DNA of 63,482 nucleotides, counting the filler, from Squatina squatina (Eukaryota), in the NCBI GenBank assembly GCA_031763465.1. It is 3 parts of 3 records of this genome, joined end to end, with 100 filler letters (N's around TTAATTAATTAA, not from the genome) between each part and the next. Parts side by side here need not be neighbours in the genome. Positions count along the whole stretch, not along the records: positions 43,829 to 63,482 come from JARFOE010000072.1; 2 more parts are not named here. One strand, given 5' to 3'. Each line of letters opens with the position of its first letter. The first letter of the stretch is position 1. Of the stretch, positions 9,844-63,482 are shown in pieces. A program made the translations under genes and the position numbers. The notes below the pieces were generated by a model, which did no database searches, was not told where the DNA came from, and saw nothing but the letters and a program-made list of their open reading frames with translations.

Positions 9844-10498
9844 NNNNNNNNNNNNNNNNNNNNNNNNNNNNNNNNNNNNNNNNNNNNNNNNNNNNNNNNN
9901 NNNNNNNNNNNNNNNNNNNNNNNNNNNNNNNNNNNNNNNNNNNTTAAACATATGATGAGCAATTGTGTAATCACATGCCATAGCGCATATCAGCTCTTCA
10001 ATAATTATACCGACTAGTGAATGCACTAAAAATACCTGACTGATAATCAGCAAATTTTATTCCCTTAGGATTAGTATTATGTAATAAGCCATTAAAGGCC
10101 AATTTTCCTGGGCCCCATGCTGGGGAGTGTGCCAGAAGTGTGCTTCAGCTGGAGTGTTGCTGTTGACCTTGAAGTCTTGTGGCAGCTTAAAGGGGCACAG
10201 CTTTTTTGTTTCCATGGGTAAGCCTATAGAGGAACTGCTGCAGAGACAGCAGTGTGCCATTCAGGAAGCTTGCAACTTCATTCCAAGAAACCTGGAATCT
10301 GAGACGTTGCTTCTGCTAATGGGTCTATATTGAACGTGCTGAGCAGGAATAGCTAGTAGCTGATCTAAAATATTGGACAACAGGAGGGCTGTTCATTTAA
10401 GGTCATACCACTTTAATGATGATGATTGAGCAATTGCTGTAGGCAGCTGATAAAGGAAAGATGTCCTGTTTCCCTGCTGTGGACTGAAGGTTCTCACA

Positions 10499-10890
10499 GC
10501 TGTGGCTCAGTGGATAGTATCCTTGCCTCCAGGTCAGAAGATTGTGAGTTCAAGTCCCACATCAGAGACTTGAATGCAAAAGTTTAAGCTGATACTTGAG
10601 TGCAGTCCTGAAAGGTACTGTCTTTTGGATAAGATGTTAACCTGAGGTCCTGTCTGCTCTCTCAGGTGGATGTAAAAGATTCCACAGCACTATTTGAAGA
10701 GCAGGGGAGTCCTGGCCAATATTTATCCCACAATCAGATTATCTGGTCATTATCACATTGCTGTTTGTGAGGGCTTGCTGTGTGCAAATTGGCTGCTGGG
10801 TTTCCTACAGTGGCTACACTTCAAAAAGGTACTTTATTGGCTGTAAAGGACTTTGGAATATCCTGAAGTCAATGCAAATTACTTCTTTCA
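10499..10890 (+). mobile_element. Deu-domain SINE (SacSINE1-like), near full length
   Basis: tRNA-like head (tggctcagtgg A box, gagttcaagtccc B box), Deu-like core (gtcttttggataagatgttaacctgaggtcc...aaagattccacagcac), tail ending aatgcaaattacttctttc. Confidence 0.75.
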
Positions 10891-10987
10891 TTTTCTTTCT
10901 TACACATTCTGAACACATGAATGACTGTCATGTCTGAAACATTAGATTTTCTGAATTTATCAGGTGCATTTAAAATGAAATACCCAC

Positions 10988-11141
10988 TTTTGGACAAATA
11001 CTCCAGTGGCCCCAGTCAGACATTATACAGACATTTGGGCAGGGGAGGGAACACTGACGGGCTCCAACTGGCATCTCATCGTAATCACACAATGCATCAT
11101 CCACATTCTCTCCAGGCTCATCAGCTGTGTTACTCACACAT
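10988..11141 (-). CDS. THSD7B: THSD7B internal exon
   Basis: RCVSNTADEPGENVDDALCDYDEMPVGARQCSLPCPNVCIMSDWGHWSICPK; ctag acceptor, gtgggt donor. Confidence 0.88.
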
Positions 11142-14104
11142 CTAGGGAGACAAAACAAGTATCTATTATTGTAAAAAATAGCTGGACCTTTCCAGCCAGT
11201 ATGGAATATGAAATGAAATAGACTTTTGTGCAAGTTTCGCATAGCTTAGCTTCAATTTCCAAAATGTTGATTATGGCCAGACACCTGTGCTTCTGGAATA
11301 GTTCTGGTCACACTAGGAAAGGTATAATCTCGTTTCAATAAGACACCCTCAATTCTTCATAACTAACCGAAACGCCAACAACTGCACCAACAAAACAAAG
11401 AAAATTAAGGGACACAGAGTTGTGCAATCACAAAGAGCAAGATGAAAGTACATGGGTTGAAAAGTCCAGATTAAGAGTCTAGCACAGGATTGTTGACTGC
11501 AGGTCTATGTCCAAATCCCATAAATCCTTTTGCCCACATGAAAGGCGAGCCTGCCCAAGGCACACACCTCCTAGAAACCAGTTATTGAGACAGAAATTTC
11601 CTGGTTCTCCTCCCTCTTGGCCAAAGGTATGACAGAGCCAGAGAGTGAAACTAAACAGNNNNNNNNNNNNNNNNNNNNNNNNNNNNNNNNNNNNNNNNNN
11701 NNNNNNNNNNNNNNNNNNNNNNNNNNNNNNNNNNNNNNNNNNNNNNNNNNNNNNNNNNAAAAACCCCAAAATCAGTAAAGGAAACAATTCAACCTCGGTG
11801 TACAGCTTCTCTGCATTCCAGTGAATCACCTTTGATATTTCAGGGATAATCATTTCCAGGCAGGTAAATGATGATGTTCTTGTCAGTGATCTTAGTAAGT
11901 ACCTCATCCATCAACAAGAATTCCTTCAGTCAGTGAACCGAACACAGAAAACAAAAACAAATCACTCTAATTCTATATATTAGAACAAATAACCCTCTCT
12001 AGAGTGTGTTTCAAGGCAGTATCACACTTTGGCATTGAGGTGACATTAAGAAAAACAACTTCAGCTTCAGTCTTGCAGTACAACTATTGTTGCAAGTTCT
12101 TTATATTATTACAGCCCTCTGGTCTGGATGCTGAAATTTAAACCCACACTGAAATATCTTTGTGATGTAGGGCAGTGAGAAACTAAAGAAGCATTGGCTC
12201 CAGACAGACTAAAACTGAAGTTTATTCTGACACATTCCATTTGACAGCAGTTAGATTGGNNNNNNNNNNNNNNNNNNNNNNNNNNNNNNNNNNNNNNNNN
12301 NNNNNNNNNNNNNNNNNNNNNNNNNNNNNNNNNNNNNNNNNNNNNNNNNNNNNNNNNNNGATGCTAATAATGATCTACTTCAGAAAATAACTTTAAAATT
12401 AAGGTATCTGCTTGGCAATCTTTAATAGGTTGGTGTTCTTCAATCCCAGAGGCTTCAATAACTTAATAACTTCAAGCTGAAACAAAATATATTTTACAAA
12501 TTACTTTGCTTATAGTAGCAGGTTGACACATTAGACTAATGTATTAGTATCAGTGCATCCATTATAAAGTCATTAGAGGAACAGGCCAATTCCCACCAGC
12601 CAATCATAAAGCAATGCACAACATGACACTATCATTTATTTAACCCAAGGAATAAATTCTAATCTGCACTGTCCATTCCCTGAAAAGTTCACGTATTCCT
12701 GGCAGAAAGTACTCTAAATGCAGAAAATAAATCTTCCGCCTGTCACATTTTTCAGCACAATTTCCAACAGCTGTGACATTCACTTACAAACATCTGCTGC
12801 AGGGAGTATGACAGCAATGGTTGCCTACAGGGAGGCAAACATTAAAGACAAATCACAATTTTGAAAATGCATTCAAAATATCTTTTTACATTACTAAACA
12901 TATTTTGAAAATTAATATGCACTGATACACTATTAAAAATGTCTCAATTCCTATTACACAATATTTATGATGATTAAAAGTTAATAAAAAAAATCATTTT
13001 ACCAGCTTGAGCAGATTCAATAAGCAACATCTCCAGAAACATAATCAAAATTGGGAAAGGATGATTTTCTTATTCACTATGATGCACTTATTTTAGTTGG
13101 AACAATTCTTAATTTACTGCAGTGTTTTTTTCTTAGTTCAAAATACATCACAGTATAAATATTTCCGAGTGAGGTTCTGCCATTAAACAATGCAGAGGGT
13201 TAAAGCCACCGTTAGGAAAGTTCAGTTATTACATAAAGTGCATTATGGTCTTGAAGATCTGTTTCTTTTGAGCTTTCAGTAACTTTAATTTCTTAACAGG
13301 CCACATAAAGTAGATTCTAAACATGTGTTTTTATTGATTGCAGTAAACATTGAGTAATGGAGTAAATATTAAGATAGGNNNNNNNNNNNNNNNNNNNNNN
13401 NNNNNNNNNNNNNNNNNNNNNNNNNNNNNNNNNNNNNNNNNNNNNNNNNNNNNNNNNNNNNNNNNNNNNNNNNNNNNNAGCTCAGCTATTAGCGCCGACA
13501 ACGGGCATTAGACCAGTAACACCCGTTTATCGCTCATTTCCGGCGAGCGCTAAGCGTCCAATTGGGCGCCCTAAAGTGGAGGTAGAGAGCTGGAATGGGG
13601 TATTATCAGATATATATGGAAGGGCAGTGGGTGAGGGACGAATTGGGCTCAGCAGTTATGTGGCCATTTTCAGATCATGTACCACACTCACTATTAAGCT
13701 TCCACACGGAAAATAGCCTCTTGGTTGAGGACCAAAGGGTTACAGGTGTCTTCAAATACCTTGCCTAGGATGGCACAGTGCCTCCAGAAAAGGAATAGGG
13801 AAGACTGGAATAAATAAAGTGATGCACATTTGTGGTCTCACAATTATTCAACAGATTTGATATTTATCACTTACGTCACTCAGGAAATAAGTTGTTAAGT
13901 GTAGATATTCTATGTTCCTCCCTCATCAGGAATTAAGAAACATAAGTAGGCATTTGAAAGCATTCATTTTTCAGATCATTTGTATGACAGAAACTATTAA
14001 TATTACATAAAGAACAAAAATTTTTTTTAAAGTACCTGCCATTAATGCACAGATGATCAAGGCAGCATTTAGTAATTCATTGTTGGTCACTTGGAACACC
14101 TCAC

Positions 14105-14283: not shown

Positions 14284-15457
14284 CTAATTTGAACCATTAA
14301 AAGAAAAATATAATTCATTTAGTGGTTTAAATCTGTGCCACGAGCTACTCCAAAAGCTTGCCACATTCATTTTAAAGAAACTTTACGTCTCAGGATGTAA
14401 CATGGAAACATGATGTTCTCTGAGCTCCTGCTGTCACAGATGATTAGTATTATTTAAAGATACAATTAAAAGCCAAATCAATTTGTTTTACAAAACATAG
14501 TCATATAAACTGGACCAAAGCATAACTAACACACAATCCATGTTATCTATACAAAATACCAAAATAGCTACTCCATTGATAGGGAACAAGAGAGGTATAA
14601 TCGCCCGGAATTTGCAGTCGGTGGCGAAGCAGTGGCATTCGCCGTTGGCCCCGAAGTAAGCTTCGCACAAAGATCTTGTGATCTCCATGGCAAGAATTTC
14701 AGATTTTCCGTTGCGTAACTGAAATCAGCGGAAGTTAATTGGGATGTCCAGTGAAGCGCTGCTATGATGTCAAAAAGCTGTCTAAGCAGCCAATCAAAAC
14801 ACCGAATTTTTACAGACAGCACCCAGGAAGTGGTTACGCTCCTTTGATTCTCACTTTTTAAAAATGTTAGAGAGAGCAAAACAAAGAGTGGGGCTCTNNN
14901 NNNNNNNNNNNNNNNNNNNNNNNNNNNNNNNNNNNNNNNNNNNNNNNNNNNNNNNNNNNNNNNNNNNNNNNNNNNNNNNNNNNNNNNNNNNNNNNNNTGC
15001 AAAGCAAGTAATCCTGTCAGATTGTTAACAAAAAATCGAATTAAATGAAATCCAGCATTTAAAAAACATGTGCATTTTCAAAAATAAACTTTCATTATTC
15101 TCTGTGATGACTAACTGTGTACCACATTTTTTATAACACTGTTGATTAAAAAGATGTTGTAGGTGCCAACAGCTCAAGCTGACAATAAATTACAGTCTTG
15201 GGAAAACTCCAAAAATATTCTTATGACCTCTGATCTAGTGAGTATGCCATTACATCTTAATGTGACAAGCCCAATTAATGGCCCAAGACATCACAATTAT
15301 TCATAGTTTAACTTAAGTTTCTGAAAAAATATGCAGAATAAGAAAACATCTTATTAACTTAATCATACGAATAGACATAAGGAAATTTCATTAACATTAA
15401 GATTAGTTTTGATATAATATGTAAAGCCTTTTGAAATTTTCAATGTCCAATACTTGC

Positions 15458-15652
15458 CTACGAGCGATCTTCTCCGACTATGGGTTGCTCCACAGCCTGC
15501 TGCACAGGAGGTGAACTTGGACCAGTTTGTCAACATGCAATCATCATGACAGGGGATCCGACACTTCTGCACAAGTGCAGGCATTGGGCCTGCCCACTTC
15601 AAGCACCCAATAAGATCTACATGCTGGTCATCACCTGTTTTACAAGTCACAC
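15458..15652 (-). CDS. THSD7B: THSD7B internal exon (probable GC donor)
   Basis: VTCKTGDDQHVDLIGCLKWAGPMPALVQKCRIPCHDDCMLTNWSKFTSCAAGCGATHSRRRSLVG; ttttag acceptor; donor AG|gcaagt. Confidence 0.87.
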
Positions 15653-16574
15653 CTAAAAATAAAGGTAGGACATTAAAAGTATTTTCATGATATTTTCTTT
15701 AAAATCACCTCTTTTTTAAAAAAAACATTGAGCAGCTAAATAACTAAAAATGTGTTGAAAATTACAGNNNNNNNNNNNNNNNNNNNNNNNNNNNNNNNNN
15801 NNNNNNNNNNNNNNNNNNNNNNNNNNNNNNNNNNNNNNNNNNNNNNNNNNNNNNNNNNNNNNNNNNNTGCTCCAAATAGCAGTGTGGGTAGTTTTCTCCA
15901 GTGGCAGTAATTATTTTAGAACTATGCAACAAACTACATATTCTTTCAACGTTCACGCAGAGTCTGATGGAAATGCAATTATTATAGTCCAATATCATGG
16001 CTCATGAATAAGTGAAAAAATTCTCAGAGATAATATTTCCACTGCAAAAAAGACACAACTATTGAAAGGATTGCATCTCATTTTCAACTTCATTGTTATG
16101 AGTCACAAGTCTGTTTTCAATGAGAGGCTGGAGTCAACAGTGTTCATTTTCAGTACCATTTTCACATACAAATTCTTTCTTTATTGATTTTGGTTTGTTT
16201 TTTGAGACATGAATTATGTGCTCATAAAGGTGAGGTATGTCAGTGCTGGTAAAAGGAACATTTTCCTATTTTTTTACACAAAGTGCCAGTTTCCCAGGTA
16301 TAGAATGGGTGAGATGCAGGATCAAGCTTCACCTCCAATGCTGAACTGGGCACCTTAGCCCTCGAACCCGACATGTATGATTTATTTGGTGGGGGAAGGA
16401 TTAAACCATTTTTAAACTGCAACTTGTTGCCGCACTTAAATATCAACCAGCCAGCTTAATGAGACACTGTGCTCAGCAATTCCGTGGTATTGTAAGCTTG
16501 TGTGCAGCATGCAATAATCTTATGCAATTCCTTGACAATAAAATGAGTATCCTGCCTCATCATTTAAAATAAAG

Positions 16575-20851: not shown

Positions 20852-20951
20852 NNNNNNNNNNNNNNNNNNNNNNNNNNNNNNNNNNNNNNNNNNNNTTAAT
20901 TAATTAANNNNNNNNNNNNNNNNNNNNNNNNNNNNNNNNNNNNNNNNNNNN
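20852..20951. other. Artificial scaffold linker N44-TTAATTAATTAA-N44
   Basis: 12-mer with stops in all six frames centred in Ns; identical construct at 43729-43828. Confidence 0.95.
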
Positions 20952-29066: not shown

Positions 29067-30032
29067 CCCCAGTAAGACACCACCTTCTCGAGGGCAATTA
29101 GGGATGGGCAATGAATGCCAGCGACGCCCACATTCCATGAATGAATTTTTTAAAAGTTGTACTACCAAATAACCTGTGTTGATTTTAAAACCACAGTGCG
29201 TGAGCTGATAACCGATGGAACTAGCTGGCCCAGGAAAGGATTTCGTTCCCTGGACACGCTGGCAGGCTAAGTGTTAACCTCATGACAGTAACACACTCTG
29301 TATTTCTCTCCTCGTATTGAAAGAATCCCTGCAGTCCTGGAGGGAGAAGGAGGCGTAGGAAGCAGTGACGGTACAGTACACAGCTGACCTTTGGAGTGCT
29401 GATGTCTGATGACAGAACTGTTGCAGTTATTTAATATTAAAATCCTATTCAGACTCTCTGCCATTTCCAGCCAGCAATTTCCTGAGTAATGTGCAATTCA
29501 CTTACACCCAGGAAGCTGCTCCTTAACGTCAGCTTGGGCAGCGGGTCCTGCAGAAACTGCACTTCATTACGAATTTCCTCTCATCATCCAACAAACCAGG
29601 TTCCATCTGACTCTAGCCTGCTGTTCAAACTCCTGGGGACGAGGCAGAAAGCACAATGGCCTGGACTCAAAATCTAGTCAATTATGAGTTCAAATTTCTC
29701 CAGGGAAGTTGACAAAATCTGGTAACAAAAAGCCCCTAATAGTACAGACATATGAACATACGAACAATGACGCACAGGTAAAGACCATTTGGTCCATCGA
29801 GCCTATCCCATACAATTGTGATGCCCTGTGTCTCNNNNNNNNNNNNNNNNNNNNNNNNNNNNNNNNNNNNNNNNNNNNNNNNNNNNNNNNNNNNNNNNNN
29901 NNNNNNNNNNNNNNNNNNNNNNNNNNNNNNNNNNGCACACGTGTGTACGTGACTGTGTGATTGTGCAAATGTATCTGGGCGCGCGGCTGTGTCTGAATTT
30001 CACCTTTCTTTTCCCTTTCAGCGTGTCCGAGA

Positions 30033-30236
30033 TTAGCTTTCAGTGAGAGGAGTGGTGTCAGGGGGAGCTTGCGGCTTTTCAGTGAGGGACTTGTACATCT
30101 CAGAGTTCAAGAACCTAGGAAAGGAGTCTCTGTGCATTAGGCTGTATATCTGTAGCTGGGCGTCCTCAAACATAAGAGGGCAAGGATTCAGCAAGTTCCT
30201 GTTGACTATTTCTCGCACACGAGAGTCAAGACTCAC
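30033..30236 (-). CDS. RGS17: RZ-family regulator of G-protein signalling, last coding exon (RGS17-like)
   Basis: VSLDSRVREIVNRNLLNPCPLMFEDAQLQIYSLMHRDSFPRFLNSEMYKS...TES*; NRNLL, EDAQ and SFPRFLNS match RGS17 rather than RGS19/20; gcag acceptor. Confidence 0.78.
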   Translation of the reverse strand: MSLDSRVREIVNRNLLNPCPLMFEDAQLQIYSLMHRDSFPRFLNSEMYKSLTEKPQAPPDTTPLTES

Positions 30237-31369
30237 CTGCAAACAGCACAAAGAAAAATAACTGAAGTGCAAATTTTATTACTACACAATCTCACTCAAG
30301 ACTGTTGAGTAGCCATCACTCTCTGACGAGCTTGATGCTCCATTTAGGCCCACTCAAGGGGGCCAACCGCCCATAACCACCTCTTTCCTAAAGGCCATGA
30401 ATGATCTGTAGGCAAAGACACCCTCTGCTGTCTTGCCCAAATGACCAATTATCGTGCCCAAGCCTAGACATTGACCGACGGTAGAATATTCATTGGTAGA
30501 GGTATCGCTGTCCTCACATGCACAAACATTCGAGCCTCCCAGAGGTCGCAGTCACTGTTGAGAAGCGAGGCTGATTAATGCCCATTGATCATTACTGCCT
30601 CAGGCAGCATTTGATCCCGAGTGCCCGCCGTGGCCCAGCCACTAAAAAGCATGCCCAAAGACAACACCGAGCCATTCAGACTAGGNNNNNNNNNNNNNNN
30701 NNNNNNNNNNNNNNNNNNNNNNNNNNNNNNNNNNNNNNNNNNNNNNNNNNNNNNNNNNNNNNNNNNNNNNNNNNNNNNNNNNNNNACTCCTCGGGCCCCA
30801 GCAAAGAGATTGTATTTTCGGCCCCTATGTTCTCTTACGTTCGGTTTGTGTTTTCATTGCCATGGTGTAACAGAAATCAAAAATGCTGAGTAGCTGCATT
30901 AAATGGCACTTATGTTGAATAGAAATAAACATCGGATTGAATTTTGAACTTCAAGTGGTTAAAATTGGACCAAATTGGATGTATTCATTAAAGGAGCTGA
31001 AATTTCAAGTAGATAATTCTTTTCCAAACAAAATGCTTATGTCTTTAAACAGAAAGGGACAAAATATGAAGGCAAATTCAGCATTTTATGCTCTCGGTGG
31101 GGAGCTGTGCTCGATGGAAATGTGAGTTAGTGATAAGCTATAAAAAAGTAGCATCGATTCTCCAACCAATACTGTCCTTTGAATGTGGCTCCCTACTGGG
31201 AGCATGGGGTCAGGGAATTTCCCCGACAGGTTTCTTCGTAATGGGCCTTGGTCCTTGACAGTAGGTTTGTCATTAAAAAGTAAAACACGCAGAATAAACG
31301 TCCCCTTTTACCTGGGGATTTGAGAGCTTGCTGTCCCTGCTAATCTTCTCAATGTCCTTACTCCTCCAG

Positions 31370-31743
31370 ACACATGGCCACTCACTGTCCTCAGAAGTCC
31401 CACCGGTGCTCATTCTGTGAGAAGATGTTTCACAGGAAGGACCACCTGAAGAACCACCTTCAAACCCACGACCCCAACAAGGTGCTGCTCAGGTGCGAGG
31501 AGTGTGGCAAGAGGTACAACACCAAGCTGGGCTACAGGCGGCACCTGGCGCTCCACGCGGCCGCCGGTGGTGACCTGAGGTGCGGACTGTGCGCCCGCGA
31601 GTTTGGCCAGACTGACCAGCTGCTGGAGCACCTGAAGGACCACGGGGGCAGGCTCGCCAGCAGCTCCAGGGAGAAGCGGCACGCGTGCGATCGCTGCGAG
31701 CGGCGCTTTTACACGCGCAAGGACGTCAGGCGGCACACGGTCG
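31370..31743 (+). CDS. PLAG-family C2H2 zinc-finger gene, start of last exon (PLAGL1/plagx-like), cut by gap
   Basis: [37 protein letters not shown]...[14 protein letters not shown]...[11 protein letters not shown]; ctccag acceptor at the phase-2 R|HMATH junction. Confidence 0.9.
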
Positions 31744-55331: not shown

Positions 55332-58175
55332 ATTACTCCATTAGATAACGGATATATGACCAATTGAAAGAAAAGTTCCTAGGCATTGTAATGGACTCTT
55401 TAAACTTTACGCCATATTTTTCACCAGGTGCATAATTGACCTGTGAAAGTGGATAGGTGAATTCCAGATAAAGGGAAGAGCAATTAAGATCACATTTTTT
55501 GATAGAAAGAGTCATTCTAATTTCACTATCAGGGGAATAAATGATCATTAAGGTGTTCATTTTATAGCTAAATAATAAAAAATACTGCAGTTGATTTGCT
55601 TTCAGTGTTAGTCCTCTCCCCAAGCACTGTGCAGAACATTCCTGTGTAATATTACTTTGCGTGCGCTGTTTAAGAAAGAAAAGTTGCAATATTATTTGTT
55701 AAAAGATGTTAGGAAGAAAATGGCCTCGGAGATCTGTTTTCTGCCATAGTCTGTCTACAGGGTAATGTTATCCTTTCATATCTAGGATTATAGTTTGCAC
55801 TGACTTCAAACACCATTGTAAATCTGTGCTTTTATTTGGCAGCTATTACAGAATTTAAGCAAAATAATTTCAGGCCATTTTATTCCAGTCCCATTGGGCA
55901 TGTATTTAGAGTACAAAATTCCCATCGAGATTCAAAACTGGGGTAAATATATCAATGCAAAAACCCTGAGTACATTCCTCAATTGAACGAGAAAATACTA
56001 ATGGTCATAGCTTTAAACATTCTAATAGAATAATAAATGTATGAGAGAAAACGAACATAAACAGGTTGGATGGGATTATTTACATTAATTGCATCAATGG
56101 AGCTGATCAAATTTCTATAATTGATACTAATGACCAAATTTGTGTTTGAAAAGCAAAAATGCTTAAATGTCAGTGCTTGTGNNNNNNNNNNNNNNNNNNN
56201 NNNNNNNNNNNNNNNNNNNNNNNNNNNNNNNNNNNNNNNNNNNNNNNNNNNNNNNNNNNNNNNNNNNNNNNNNNNNNNNNNATGAACTAGCACAACAGGG
56301 CAATGTTTCAAAATGTAATTTAAAAAAATTTTGCTTCAAAAATATTCCTTGATATATTTGAAAGTGGTAACATGGTAAAGTTTGATTAATACAGCTGAAA
56401 ATGGGTATTTCACAAAATATATGCATTTTAAGTCAGTGTCAATCCACCTGTGAGTAATCTTTTTAAATTTTAAATGACTGAAAATAACTTTAGAAAATAT
56501 GCAAGAACTATTTTCTAGTTAGATTGGGGTCCAGTAGTCAGTTCCTTTGTAAATTGTAAAAAAAATCATTCAAAACCTTTCAAAATGTACTTATTAGTGT
56601 CCTTACGCCAAAAGGCCCAGCTTAATTTCTGGAGCCTCCTCAAAGGCATGCAAACGAGTGCATTTAATGGAAACTCCAAATGGTGATTAGTTCAGGCTGG
56701 GGGCATGGCCAGTTTTGTGGGCGATGTCTTTAAAACTAGCGCAAAATATTGGGGAATCTAGAGTTGCGCTGAAGGCAATTTGCGCTTAAAACTCAATTAA
56801 CTTTTGCACCAGTTACGCCGATGTCAGGAGAATTGCGTCAAAAAAAAGCACAATCAAGCAGGAACTCCAAGCCCAAGTGCCTTTAGGATCACAAGCCTTT
56901 GCTTTCCATCATCATTGGAAACACCAACATAACAAAACCATTTCTATTAGTACATAATAAAGATAAATCAATAATCTACACTGAAATAATTAAACAAATC
57001 AACAGAAACAAATTTCATTGTAAATAGCATGCAACACGAGGGGCATTTCTACTCTTAATGCAAGACTGGGTACAGCCTGGTCTTAGAACGCAATAAAAGT
57101 GACCCCTTTTTTCTCACTATCCCATCTTTCTCTGCAGGAGGTTAACCAGTGCCTCAATTATGGGCTAGCTTTTAATCTTCATCGTTTGAGCGGTAAGGGC
57201 AGGGCAGATTGCATGCCCTTGATAGAATCCATTGAAATCAATGGAAGCAGGTAGGTTCTATAAAACTGCATGCGATCCGCCCAGCCAGTTTCCCACCCAG
57301 GTGCTAAACATCTACTCTTAATTGTCAAGATGTAGCTGGATAGTATTGCCTCCTTCAGAAACAACAAAGCTAAGATACACTTTTGTTTGTGCATCTGTTC
57401 CCAGCAGCCAGACTCCAATTTATTAGGTTTCAAATAAGTTTTATCGAGCTTATATATTTTTAAGTGGTTTACAATAGTGTCTGTATAACTACCCAGTTGA
57501 ACCTGTCTTGAGGGAGTAATTAATTTCCATCTGGTAGCTTAGTTTTAAGCAGTAATTTACGAGAGAGTGAAAACCCCTGGAAAGAGGTTGTTCTAAAAAA
57601 AACAGCTGTTTCAAAAAAATCAAATTTACTATGTATATCAATATTATTCATAGACGTGTTAAAAGAACCGTTTTAAAGTTAATCCTATCCTGTTTATTCA
57701 ATAAAAAGTGATTCATATCCATTGAAATGCTGAATCCTTACCTCTGTTTTTAGACTTGAGGTCTGGCAGTGATTAATACTCAAATTAGTCCTCAGTTGGA
57801 CATTGGCTCACTTGTCAGAAATAAACTTCTTTAATTTTAAAATTTGCCCTCTTATTTAAGTGAAACGGTATGGACATTAACAGCTATAGCAAGATGCTAA
57901 AAGGGAGAGCAATNNNNNNNNNNNNNNNNNNNNNNNNNNNNNNNNNNNNNNNNNNNNNNNNNNNNNNNNNNNNNNNNNNNNNNNNNNNNNNNNNNNNNNN
58001 NNNNNNNNNNNNNTCACATAGATGCTTGAATGCAAGCAGAGGGGGTCATGCATAAAACTGATTTTGTACTTAATAACTAGTATTCACTTGCCCATCTGAA
58101 CCATTTAAAATAAAAATCACACTTTCTCCATGTTTATTGCACATTTTTGAAACAAATACAAAAGACAGCAGGTAC

Positions 58176-58765
58176 CTGGAGCTCTTGCTTTTTCTCAGCC
58201 TGTCCCCAGCACTCATATTGTACAGAGATAGGGCTTTTACTGAAGCAGAGATGCAGCTTTCAGACAAAGACCACGAGAGGATGAGTCTGATGGCGCTTTG
58301 GATCTCGAACTTGGTGCACTTGGAGTGCACGACACTCAGGCGCTGCGCCTCCCTGGAGATCCTGATCAGGGCTCTCCTCAGCAAGAAGGACAATCTCCTG
58401 ACAGCTTCCTGAGAGAAGAGCTTTCCACACTCCCCGGGCCTCCCTTTCTTCAGAATCCTCCCAATGTCTTCGTCCGTCCATGGGAATTCCTCCAGCTCGG
58501 GGAGCCGGGGGCATTTGAAGAAGATGTCGTTGACCTCGGGGTCCTCTGGTAGCACCGTGTTGACGGTATCCCAGCTGTTGTTGCGGCTGTTCATGGAACC
58601 CGAAAGGTACCACCAGTTGCCTCTGTTGTGGGTGGACTGGAAGGCTTGGGAGTTCGATCTGGACGAGGAGAGACTGAGAGACCTGCAGGAATCTCCTGCC
58701 CCATAGCCCGAGTCCAAAGTCAGATCTTCCAGCGTCTTCAAGGTGGAGTTGTACAATCCCGCCAT
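58176..58765 (-). CDS. ABTB2: ABTB2 first coding exon (includes H2B-like histone fold)
   Basis: [35 protein letters not shown]...[16 protein letters not shown]...[15 protein letters not shown]...KSKSSR then cag|gtacct donor. Confidence 0.92.
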
Positions 58766-59065
58766 TGTGCAAGAGGCGCAGTTTGGAAGTGTTTGCACAA
58801 GTCCAAGCCAAGTCAGTTGGGATGGGGTGCTGTCCAACTCCTTTCTTCACGACATAAAGCGCAAAGTACTCCTTTGGGCTTTCTAATAGTGCAAACCACT
58901 GTACTGCAAGGATGTCAGCTATGGAACTCTATCCACATCTGTAACAGTCCTCTTGCTCTAAGCGNNNNNNNNNNNNNNNNNNNNNNNNNNNNNNNNNNNN
59001 NNNNNNNNNNNNNNNNNNNNNNNNNNNNNNNNNNNNNNNNNNNNNNNNNNNNNNNNNNNNNNNNT

Positions 59066-60403
59066 AGAGGAGACCTGCGGTCTGGAATTAGCGTGGGGCT
59101 GCTGACCATTCCTCTGTCCCTTGCTTTTGCAGTCTGTGCTGGAGAACCACCTATTAATGGTCTCTACACAAGTTTCGTTACCACAGTCTTATATTGCTTG
59201 CTTGGCACAACACAACACCTATCCTACGGAGCGTCTGCATTCACTGGTCTGCTCATTGCCAAGAGCACAAGCCATATTGAAACTCAGGAACCTACTTCTG
59301 ACAGCGAATGTTCTGCAAAATGTTCACGAGAACTTCATGTGGTTACCCTCACCTGTGTTTCTGGAATTGTTTTAATTTCTATGGGAATTTTTCGCCTCAG
59401 TTTCCTAAGAACTTACATCTCCAAGCCTGTTATGAATGGCTTCAAAGCTGGAGCAGCTTTGCATTTATTAGTCATCCTCCTGACTGTATTACTTGGTATT
59501 GATGGGCCAATTCATCATGGTCCTTTATCACTTGCCTATACTTTCAAGGCCATAATTGAAAATATTAATAAAATACACATTGCCTCAGTGATTACTGGTT
59601 TAACCACTTTGGCATTTCTGATGCCTTTTAAAGTAGTTAACTATATTTATAGTAGGCATCTCATACCTATAGAGTTTATTGCAATAGCTGTTTCCATTTG
59701 CTTGTCATTCTGGCTGGAACTAGAGNNNNNNNNNNNNNNNNNNNNNNNNNNNNNNNNNNNNNNNNNNNNNNNNNNNNNNNNNNNNCCTTCTTTCTCCTTA
59801 ATATCCAGTGTTGCTGCAGATGCTGTTACTGTTGCACTGGTGACCTTTGCAGTTAGCATTTCACTAGGGAGTGAAAACTCCAAAAAACACAACCAAAGTT
59901 ATCACCCACATCAAGAGACCATTGTTTTAGGGTGTTGTGACCTGCTGCTCTCGTTTCTGGGTACTTTTGCAGCTTCTGGGGTTTGGGAACAAACTGTGGT
60001 ACAAGAAAAAGCCTGGGGTCAAACCCAAGCCGCAGGGCTGGTAGCAGCAAGCCTTAGTCTTACAGCTCTGCTGTGTGCGGAGACTCTGCTTCCACTGGTG
60101 CCCAAAGCAGTTCTTGGCGCTATTGTGATTTCAAATCTGGGGTGTTATTTCGAGTTCTCCTGGAAGTACTGTTTTGCATGTAAGAAGAGCAAATATGAGT
60201 TTGCAGCTGGAATTGTAACATTTATAGCAGTTTGCATACTAGGCATAGATATTGGTTTAGGAGTTGGCATAGTTTTCTCAATTTTGCTCACTCTACACAG
60301 ACTTCAGAGGCCTTTGATTGCCATTTTAGGCCATATTCCCAATACAGAAAACTATACAGACTTGTCCATTGAGAAAACTGCCAAAGAAGTAGTTGGAATG
60401 AAA
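59066..60403 (+). CDS. Partial intronless, divergent SLC26/SulP-family membrane protein (TM domain and STAS start), both ends in gaps
   Basis: GDLRSGISVGLLTIPLSLAFA...GLYTSF...LGTTQHLSYG; YISKPVMNGF; QETIVLG; VQE..GQTQAAGL; PKAVLGAIVI; QRP...LGHIPNTENY; no stops in the visible sequence. Confidence 0.88.
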
Positions 60404-60503: not shown

Positions 60504-61015
60504 GGTGCCGGGTTTGAGGTCCTTATCTTCAAACACTCTTTTCCTCAAGTGGCTGAAGGCTGTGCTGGCACACTGGAGGCAGTGTTGGATTTTGTTGCCA
60601 TGTCTGCCCTCACTGAGAGCAGGTTCCCAAGGTATGGAAAGTGATCCACGTTGTCCAGGGGCTCGCCATGAATCTTGATAGTCGGAGGACAGTATTGTAC
60701 GGCTGGGGCAGGACCTTTGCCTTGCGGATGTTTAGTGTGAGGCCCATTCTCTCGTACGCCTTGGTGAGTAAATCAATGATGAATTGGAGCTCAGCCTCCA
60801 AGCGTGCACACACACAAGTGTCATCTGCCTACTGCAGTTCGATGATAGAGGTTGGGGTGGTCTTGGTTCTGGACTGGAGGTGGTGGAGGTTGAACAGTTT
60901 CCCACTCGTCCTGTAGATTAGCTCCACTCCAGCAGGAAGCTTCATGGAGATGGGATGGAGTGTTGCAGCGAAGAAGATGGAGAAGAGCGTCAGTGCCTTG
61001 CTTGACCCCAGGCTT
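60504..61015 (-). mobile_element. RTE-clade LINE RT fragment
   Basis: GVKQG..., Q*ADDTCVCARLEAELQFIIDLLTKAYERMGLTLNIRK, LRKRVFEDKDLKPGT. Confidence 0.85.
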
Positions 61016-62017
61016 CATATTGAAGCACAGGTGACAGCAGAATGACAGCTAAAATTTCTGAAATTTTTAATCTAAAAAGGGGAACAGAGGGACATCCAGG
61101 CAAAGTGCAGGTGAAATTAAAGATATATAAAATGAGTTTAATCCCCTTTGTGTTCTATTTTTCAATTCACTTCTAATATAACTGATTTACTGCACTTTAA
61201 GGTGCAAATAGTTAAATTATTTGTAAAAATAAATCCTTATTGTAATCTGTTTCTGGTTATGCCTTTAGATAGACAATGCAGTGTCCTCAATCCATCTCAG
61301 GTGGCTTTGTTGAGGAATGCTGGGAGTGGGACATTCACGCCAAGTCACCAGCAGTGCAACTTTCTCCTTGTCGGAGAGCAGTTTACTTCCATATCGACCC
61401 CATCTTACAAAGTGAAGGCACAGCTGGAGTGAGAGGAACAAAAGGTGGCGTCATAATAGACCCTTTCGTGTTCCTTTTTTTTGCTGTTGAATACCAAATA
61501 ATAGCATACTAAGAGAAGCTTGATTTCAGATCCAATATCAGGTGTTTCACATTAATATTTCTTCTGGTTTATCAATGGTAATCAGTTGCCTTAGTTTGCA
61601 GCCAACTTGGGGATTTCAGCCTACCTTTGATGCTGACATCCATTGCAGTGCTATGCAAGGTAGACAAGACTATTTTGTTTTACTGGCGCAGTCCTGAGCT
61701 TTAAGTTTATGCCCCATCATTCTGTTGTAGGTCAACAGAAAGTAAAATCAGTAGTTACAGCAATCTAGTACAAAATAGGCAGCAATTTTGCACTGTGGAC
61801 TCATGCCCACCAGGAACTGGGTTGCGACTACTCCAAACTCATTTCTTATTGTCACCATACAGAGACAGAGGAGAAAGGGAGGAGGAGGAGAGAGAGAGAG
61901 AGAGAGACTTCCATTTCAAGAGTCATATGTGGTTTCAGCAATACACCAATGGTATGCTGACACCCAATCTCCCATCGTAACCATCTCTACTGTATATTCA
62001 TAACAACATAACACTTA

Positions 62018-62648: not shown

Positions 62649-63482
62649 TCATGCCAAAACAAACTGCCAGTTAGTCAGCAGTATCTCAATTCCACTGATC
62701 ACTGAGACCACAGATGTGGCTGGGTTCAGTTTTAATGTATTGGCATCACCCTTTTTACACTTGTCTCTGAAAACATAGATACACCCATTGCAACTAGCAA
62801 TCTTCCAGAGGGAGGGTACACGACTCCAAACCTCTGGGAAGCGCAGTCTGGTAAAGCTGTCAAGCAGTGGATTGTAACATACCAAAGAGTCCCCCTCGGC
62901 TACAATAAAAATCAGGTCCTTATGAATAGCGGCGTGCATACGGCCTGCAAAGGGGAGGAGGTACGACTTTAACTGGCACGTTCTGGAGCGTGTGTCAAAA
63001 CACTGGATGAGACGAGATGGTTTGGTAAAGAAGTCCAAGTCATTCTCCTCCCCACCCAGAAGATAGATAGTTCCATTAAGGTTAACACCAGCAGCACAAG
63101 ATACTGCAGTGTCCAGCGGATTGGTTTCAACCCACACATTATCACAGACCACATAATAAATGATAGCACTGGAGAGCGTATCCTGTAGTGTTTTCCCACC
63201 CAGTGAATAAATGGCGTCCTCACTTGGGACAGATACCAACGTGTGCTGAAGGCGATCTCTTGGCAGGGATGCGCACTGTTCCCAGTCCATTGTCTCCATG
63301 TTACACTTCCACATCCGGCGTGGGATGGGGCCACCCACAACATACAGGTCACTGCCATGCTTGCATGCAGCTGTGATCTGCTGGCGCAATCTATTTTGCC
63401 CACTGACACTGATGGCATCATCATCACAGTGCAAAGAAACTGCCAGTGAGTGCGTCCGAGTGTCTTCCTTTCCAATCAGATA
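62649..63482 (-). CDS. KBTBD4: KBTBD4 last coding exon (Kelch propeller), 5' part beyond the window edge
   Basis: YLIGKEDTRTHSLAVSLHC...ITAACKHGSDLYVVGGPIPRRMWKC...GGEENDLDFFTKPSRLIQCFD...LLTNWQFVLA* closely matches recalled KBTBD4. Confidence 0.95.
   Translation of the reverse strand, partial: YLIGKEDTRTHSLAVSLHCDDDAISVSGQNRLRQQITAACKHGSDLYVVGGPIPRRMWKCNMETMDWEQCASLPRDRLQHTLVSVPSEDAIYSLGGKTLQDTLSSAIIYYVVCDNVWVETNPLDTAVSCAAGVNLNGTIYLLGGEENDLDFFTKPSRLIQCFDTRSRTCQLKSYLLPFAGRMHAAIHKDLIFIVAEGDSLVCYNPLLDSFTRLRFPEVWSRVPSLWKIASCNGCIYVFRDKCKKGDANTLKLNPATSVVSVISGIEILLTNWQFVLA

Follow-up and report, generated by a model that had tools for sequence, protein, structure and literature searches.

Can an SLC26 gene without introns in its membrane domain, and with its anion-binding pocket replaced, be a working gene, and what would its protein do? 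The question is raised by a locus of Squatina squatina (assembly GCA_031763465.1) in a window of 63,482 nucleotides, by which we mean the whole stretch of DNA analysed, made up of short genomic contigs strung together with 100-N spacers between them. A preliminary description had proposed about 1.3 kb of intronless, open SLC26 frame, read either as a non-transporting or new-substrate protein or as a young, drifting retro-pseudogene. The SLC26 feature is a single contig (59065-60403) with 100-N spacers on either side and an internal 60-N gap, laid out as follows.

59066-60403, plus strand: open frame of 446 codons without stop or intron; the translation covers SLC26 TM1-TM14 and the first STAS strand, approximately prestin 82-536
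59726-59785, plus strand: 60-N gap, equal to 20 codons that are present in the orthologues at exactly that place
59065-59080, plus strand: contig edge, at which the first 3 bases disagree with three related runs

The remaining five frames of 59066-60403 have 17 to 30 stops each, and PF00916 (E 3e-65) is the sole Pfam family matched by the window protein. The DNA of the stretch is genomic, because neighbouring contigs carry exons with introns. Two genome-sized runs from relatives, X15 and X16, each yielded a single contig that crosses all of it, free of gaps and joints, so there is no intron in the membrane domain and the intronless frame of the preliminary description stands. At the upstream loose ends of these contigs the frame runs on for 10 more codons in the relatives, which together with the 446 codons delimits the observed absence of introns, the N-terminal and STAS parts lying outside the DNA read. 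The parts missing here, among them the 60-N gap that was a blind spot of the earlier reading, contain no stops in the orthologues, which are full length. Codon 5 (59078-59080) codes for R in the window versus L in 27/27 orthologues, and together with the odd first 3 bases this is probably an error at the contig end. Across the following spacer comes a LINE-like high-copy fragment (60504-61030) with very high cover, which need not adjoin the gene in the genome. Two other spacers (20852-20951 and 43729-43828) consist of 44 N, 12 AT-only bases and 44 N, probably a data-handling artefact.

The gene is not private to this genome. Full-length orthologues of 735-864 aa, with a STAS domain, were identified in 22 named species of sharks, rays, skates and sawfish and one chimaera, the hosts including both shark superorders and the elephant shark (the chimaera). 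Most of them are named 'prestin-like', the automatic name under which the gene is already in databases. Their membrane domains are 75-93% identical to the window protein, versus 38% for the best of 170 other SLC26 rows, and among 1.84 billion representatives the clade forms 1 cluster (1153 bits), with the next match at 384 bits. Both PF00916 and PF01740 were found on orthologue P0003; the STAS region of the S. squatina gene falls beyond the contig, and all statements on STAS are orthologue based. For residue comparisons we used an alignment of 198 rows, of which 28 are clade rows (including duplicates of three species and 2 rows without species name, with the 52-aa fragment P0354 excluded throughout) and 170 are other SLC26 proteins, these being the best search matches and not the whole family. 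For several orthologues, one and the same protein is listed under two to four RefSeq accessions, a pattern that may reflect alternative untranslated exons.

Between the window and run X1 there are 52 differences, and the 40 of these that are listed comprise 24 synonymous and 16 nonsynonymous changes, giving a pN/pS of 0.23-0.31 (p at most 3e-4). This value, far under 1, answers the dN/dS check proposed earlier, and the gene is under purifying selection.

Expression had also been named as a check. The RNA nature of the runs used is inferred and not on record (14 rows taken as RNA, from 6 studies), and the evidence comes from X1 and X2 only. X1 belongs to the same study as X21 and is as near to the window as X15, while X2 is from another study and organism. 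As a control, we used the cover on unique non-coding sequence (56858-57577) and on an intron (58010-58153) beside a neighbouring exon. This neighbour, which also served as spliced-RNA control, is a first coding exon (58070-58846, minus strand; splice donor near 58175) with no Pfam match, which we take to resemble ABTB2. X1, X21 and X2 have zero cover on both non-coding intervals, where the genome run X15 has 13-32; the blank in X2 is the weaker control, X2 being more distant. The X21 contig of the exon follows it as far as the splice donor, beyond which its letters differ. The SLC26 stretch is covered by two long contigs in each of X1 and X2 which, together with the control, supports transcription of the gene in two studies. 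X21 contains it only in three low-depth pieces (2.4-6.9), close to its own non-coding background (2.7), and was dropped as expression evidence. Contig depth is unsuited to ranking tissues. The main text of PMC11979771 gave no match for tissue data on the gene, its supplement being outside the search. In the parts available of PMC9396271, the kidney table has slc26a1, a2, a5, a6, a9, a10 and a11 without a prestin-like entry, and its 4 supplements gave 0 matches, a blank that is not evidence of absence.

A drifting retro-pseudogene or an assembly artefact would have explained the missing introns, the short contig and the one private non-conservative change at the contig edge. At the level of the clade this reading is already refuted: full-length orthologues exist in 22 species, the chimaera included, the pN/pS is low and RNA-type runs cover the gene. 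We give it practically no weight, and the young pseudogene of the preliminary description falls with it, as the gene is intact from chimaera to sharks and rays. What we have is an intact SLC26 paralogue shared by sharks, rays and chimaeras.

As to its origin, the intron common to slc26 genes sits in TM4. In the available parts of PMC12357937, slc26a3 is interrupted by 18 introns, and a single intron is common to all the slc26 genes compared, cartilaginous-fish slc26a1 and a2 among them. From the intronless membrane domain we infer that the gene probably arose as a retrocopy, and we put this no higher because the N-terminal and STAS parts lie outside the DNA read. A poly(A) remnant or target-site duplication would belong to the flanks, beyond the contig, and would have faded by now.

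The parent is harder to name. The clade has full support, with a stem of 1.7-2.1 changes per column versus about 0.25 within the clade, branch lengths that point to fast change on the stem followed by stasis. In a careful 22-row tree it falls among the vertebrate SLC26A3-6/8/9 proteins (92/99) and is joined to SLC26A8 at 80/77, by an unstarred link between two long branches. A 178-row FastTree supports the same group (0.955) and gives the SLC26A8 sisterhood a support of 0.045, and in a 50-row quick tree the clade is unplaced and the SLC26A8 link absent. The trees are without chondrichthyan SLC26A3-A9 (SLC26A5 included) and contain SLC26A8 as 2 rows only; for P0301, P0334, P0217, P0249, P0278, P0229 and some A6 rows, the group was assigned by motif and by place in the tree rather than taken from the name in the source. 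AU tests took in prestin, SLC26A9 and SLC26A1/2 as candidate sisters. Prestin was rejected (p=0.0013; 22 rows, with a long-branch caveat), and with it a derivation from prestin, while SLC26A9 (p=0.126) and SLC26A1/2 (p=0.239) were not. Shared derived residues number 2-10 per row and indicate no clear parent. The family tree that had been called for therefore gives a group and speaks against prestin as sister, without a clear parent; SLC26A8 is weakly suggested.

Regarding genomic context, the window also contains a KBTBD4 kelch exon (62649-63482, minus strand), 98% identical to protein P0377. The contigs carrying P0377 and the SLC26 orthologue P0355 are both 64,382,378 long, which places them in one assembly and gives linkage at chromosome level only. 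Because these lengths are equal, the contig order of the window may follow a reference chromosome. To our knowledge, human KBTBD4 lies on 11p, away from all SLC26 genes. Elsewhere, exons at 1-1468, 9944-11658, 14998-15767, 29935-30685 and 30786-31743 presumably resemble THSD7, an RGS protein and a PLAG-type zinc finger. A single-exon helical ORF of 718 aa (37545-39701, minus strand) has no Pfam family (DUF6987, E 0.019, is under the cut-off); its atlas features lead to unnamed chordate and ascomycete fungal clusters at 0.98 and, more weakly (0.83), to a cluster of Bacillus_HBL type; it may represent a pore-forming-like family that is still uncharacterised and occurs patchily.

Residues of the pocket and of other parts of the membrane domain that set the clade apart stand at the following positions.

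59114-59116, plus strand: L at prestin Q97 (TM1); L in 28/28 clade rows; in the other rows, Q in 153/170 and L in 4/166
59234-59236, plus strand: S at prestin F137 (TM3); S in 28/28 clade rows and 3/161 others
59444-59446, plus strand: K at prestin T214 (TM5, gate domain); K/R in 28/28 clade rows, T in 124/170 others
59939-59941, plus strand: D at prestin N382 (TM9); D in 28/28 clade rows and 2/169 others
59981-59992, plus strand: V-W-E-Q at prestin S396-L397-S398-R399 (TM10 start, anion site), from HMMER and the 198-row alignment

The HMMER alignment of the window protein to human prestin 82-536 is free of gaps at the pocket sites. It and the 198-row alignment uphold the substitutions first aligned by hand (Q97L, P136A/F137S and S396V-L397W-S398E-R399Q), and a profile alignment restoring equivalents of Q97, F137 or R399 was sought, with none restored. 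The canonical pocket (Q97, F137, S396, S398 and R399) is replaced by L, S, V, E and Q in 28/28 clade rows. At position 397, 22 rows have W and 6 have C, K449 (TM12) is G in 28/28, and the K/R at 214 is a new fixed positive charge. E398, the acid that had been placed at the anion site, and Q399 occur in 0/169 other rows (one has D398). Some of the other proposals were only partly right. In TM3, F137S is informative and P136A is not, as position 136 is T in 107/170 and A in 9/170 other rows and A, T or M within the clade; we rejected the idea that P136A matters. The conserved Arg is indeed lost from the clade, although this is not a unique trait, as 10/169 other rows (V, T or other) also lack it, including SLC26A10, one SLC26A8 and one SLC26A9-like row. 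Scaffold motifs, described as kept, are kept in 86 of 159 family-conserved columns and changed in 73. The clade thus keeps 52-56% of consensus columns, compared with 63-66% in SLC26A8, and only 1/170 other rows (an SLC26A11) is under 60%; the change extends beyond the pocket. Within the clade, 5/8 canonical pocket positions are invariant versus a background of 196/446 (44%), and we rejected the argument that the invariance of the pocket proves a substrate.

A model of orthologue P0003 (pLDDT 82, pTM 0.79) has the SLC26 14-TM 7+7 fold with short TM3/TM10 helices; it was built on a 150-row alignment and leans on its richness in canonical SLC26 proteins, a 7-row clade alignment giving a pLDDT of 31. 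Its top Foldseek matches are SLC26 structures, with prestin the best PDB and Foldseek match, and an atlas search returned generic SLC26 clusters.

What these changes may do can be judged from mutants of other SLC26 proteins, cited here from the portions of the papers available to us. S398 and R399 are conserved in all vertebrate prestins (PMC3988826), a hallmark absent from the clade, which has E and Q instead. Chicken prestin no longer transports when it carries S404D (S398D) or R405C (R399C) (PMC3988826). Prestin S398E loses chloride binding in simulation (bioRxiv 2024.01.29.577264) and loses its anion sensitivity while retaining non-linear capacitance (bioRxiv 2024.01.29.577264; PMC10699807; PMC9584906), and R399Q abolishes non-linear capacitance (bioRxiv 2021.08.06.455374; PMC3988826). 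Helix dipoles contribute more than R399 to the anion binding energy of prestin (PMC9584906). Slc26a9, without the TM10 Arg, still carries chloride, Q88, F128 and S392 carrying this transport; its F128, equivalent to F137, limits pocket size, and Q88E in the pocket kills the currents (PMC6656431). SLC26A2 Q125L (Q97L) leaves 40-70% of sulfate transport, and N425D, which the offset of 43 seen at K442 places at prestin position 382, is a disease-associated substitution (PMC11059360). Since Arg-less SLC26A9 and Q97L SLC26A2 still transport and prestin with an acid at 398 does not, we take the acid at 398 as the telling change, rather than the loss of Arg or Gln. By analogy with these mutants, anion exchange has probably gone from the clade, and the reading as a non-transporting or new-substrate protein would be likely.

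The other end of the protein offers a further lead. All 27/27 full-length orthologues end E-Y-E-[T/S]-x-L, and we take E-[T/S]-x-L to be a class I PDZ ligand motif. Five of the last 10 columns are invariant, compared with 3 of the preceding 55 and 71/195 in STAS, so the linker ahead of the tail drifts freely while the C-terminal motif stays; class I-type endings also occur in 41/170 other SLC26 rows. For SLC26A8, CFTR is stimulated via STAS and its own transport is poorly established (PMC6813192, as available in part). Because the PDZ-type tail is conserved, STAS is kept and SLC26A8 provides a precedent, we tentatively favour, at somewhat short of an even chance, a protein that would have lost anion exchange and would act as a STAS/PDZ scaffold-regulator of other membrane proteins. 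The mRNA of an SLC26A3-A9-type ancestor would have been copied back into the genome ahead of the divergence of chimaeras from sharks and rays, and a burst of change on the stem would have removed Q97, F137, S396, R399 and K449 and placed E at 398. This glutamate may cap the ends of the TM3 and TM10 helices, a role that the bound anion has in prestin, and so fill the anion site permanently, and the new K/R214 may pair with it. The protein would then stay folded in the loaded state without substrate, and STAS and the E-[T/S]-x-L tail would connect it with a PDZ adaptor and with a partner protein, for instance CFTR, as for SLC26A8 in sperm. Each functional step here is extrapolated from single mutants made elsewhere in the SLC26 family and would hold by analogy.

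A close rival, which we regard as possible but not probable, is a repurposed carrier, in which the elevator would still move with a neutral or zwitterionic solute or H+/NH4+ in the pocket, convergent with the acid-plus-amide pair of SLC23; the solutes envisaged are a urea-cycle or methylamine osmolyte or a nucleobase-like molecule. SLC4A11 is a precedent for an acid pocket moving H+/NH3. On superposition, S398 of prestin falls on UraA E290, which binds uracil (PMC3988826), the size-limiting F137 of Slc26a9 (PMC6656431) is S in the clade, the new fixed charges D382 and K/R214 could complete a site, and P326, P328, P331, E293, E374, N447 and E404 are retained. A fixed, polar pocket enlarged by F137S would suit a ligand as well as a plug, and the PDZ tail and STAS are compatible with transport, as the class I endings in 41/170 other rows indicate. 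However, UraA also requires a glutamate on TM8 (E241; PMC11362169, seen in part), and this column, which has glutamate in SLC26A11 and bacterial rows, has V in the clade. Lining positions 397 (W/C) and 136 (A/T/M) differ widely in size within the clade, the pocket is not enriched in invariant positions, and no substrate is pointed to by any result. We consider unlikely the more specific proposal that this SLC26 switched from anions to an osmolyte (TMAO, betaine, taurine or urea) or H+/NH4+, converging by analogy on the SLC23 TM10 glutamate; if true, it would be the first vertebrate SLC26 not carrying anions and a candidate for osmolyte retention in sharks and rays.

Somewhat less likely again is an anion transporter with altered selectivity, for example a proton-coupled one in which E398 is protonated on anion binding and the K/R214 present in 28/28 rows replaces the Arg. 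The large share of helix dipoles in prestin binding energy and the SLC26A9 and SLC26A10 rows without Arg are compatible with it, whereas an acid at the same position killed transport in the otherwise transport-competent chicken prestin, E398 is found in no other row, and Q97, F137, S396 and K449 are lost together. Last, the protein might be a natural counterpart of prestin S398E that senses voltage or tension, or acts as a motor, independently of anions in hair cells or electroreceptors; this reading could draw on the non-linear capacitance that S396E/S398E prestin retains without anions (bioRxiv 2024.01.29.577264; PMC10699807). It seems very improbable to us, as R399Q abolishes that capacitance, prestin sisterhood is rejected and a separate gene is annotated prestin in cartilaginous fishes (PMC9396271 Table 5, in the part available).

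Whether scaffold or carrier, the gene extends a transporter family of medical importance by a branch that has apparently not been studied. Our full-text literature search found no paper on it, and the 'prestin-like' matches listed included none on cartilaginous fishes; subscription papers (e.g., an elephant-fish slc26 kidney study) were beyond reach. The elephant-shark orthologue accession is absent from the text of the slc26a12 paper (PMC11145369). Evolution has made, and has kept since before the chimaera/shark split, the S398E and R399Q changes engineered in prestin to study anion binding. This provides a natural test of whether the elevator of SLC26 proteins can do without anions, serving as a scaffold or moving a different solute. 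Work on hearing and ion transport in sharks can be misled by the automatic 'prestin-like' label.

Among known systems, prestin (SLC26A5) has the same fold and is about 29-37% identical, and the natural E398 and Q399 of the clade are the residues engineered there. The clade combines both changes with Q97L, F137S, S396V and N382D, has an intronless membrane domain and is rejected as the sister of prestin. SLC26A8 (testis anion transporter 1) is a multi-exon gene at 6p21. It is likewise a divergent vertebrate SLC26, with STAS-dependent CFTR stimulation (PMC6813192), and a weak sister in two of the three trees. Its rows keep Q97 and 38/44 strongly conserved columns, of which the clade keeps 26-28, and it has no acid at 398 and a different C-terminal end. 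SLC26A9 is without the TM10 Arg, like the clade, and was not rejected as sister; the SLC26A9-like row ends T-A-L, as do most clade members, but SLC26A9 keeps Q88, F128 and S392 (PMC6656431), all three altered in the clade. Slc26a12 is also a lineage-restricted extra vertebrate SLC26, recently named, which, unlike the clade gene, lies in tandem with slc26a2, has two coding exons and is absent from cartilaginous fishes according to the parts available of PMC11145369. UraA/SLC23/NCS2 proteins share the 7+7 fold of the clade model (Foldseek E 9e-9), and the clade glutamate 398 occupies the position of UraA E290 (equivalence from PMC3988826); at 14% identity to UraA, without the TM8 glutamate and with STAS, any likeness of the clade to SLC23/NCS2 would be convergence and not membership.
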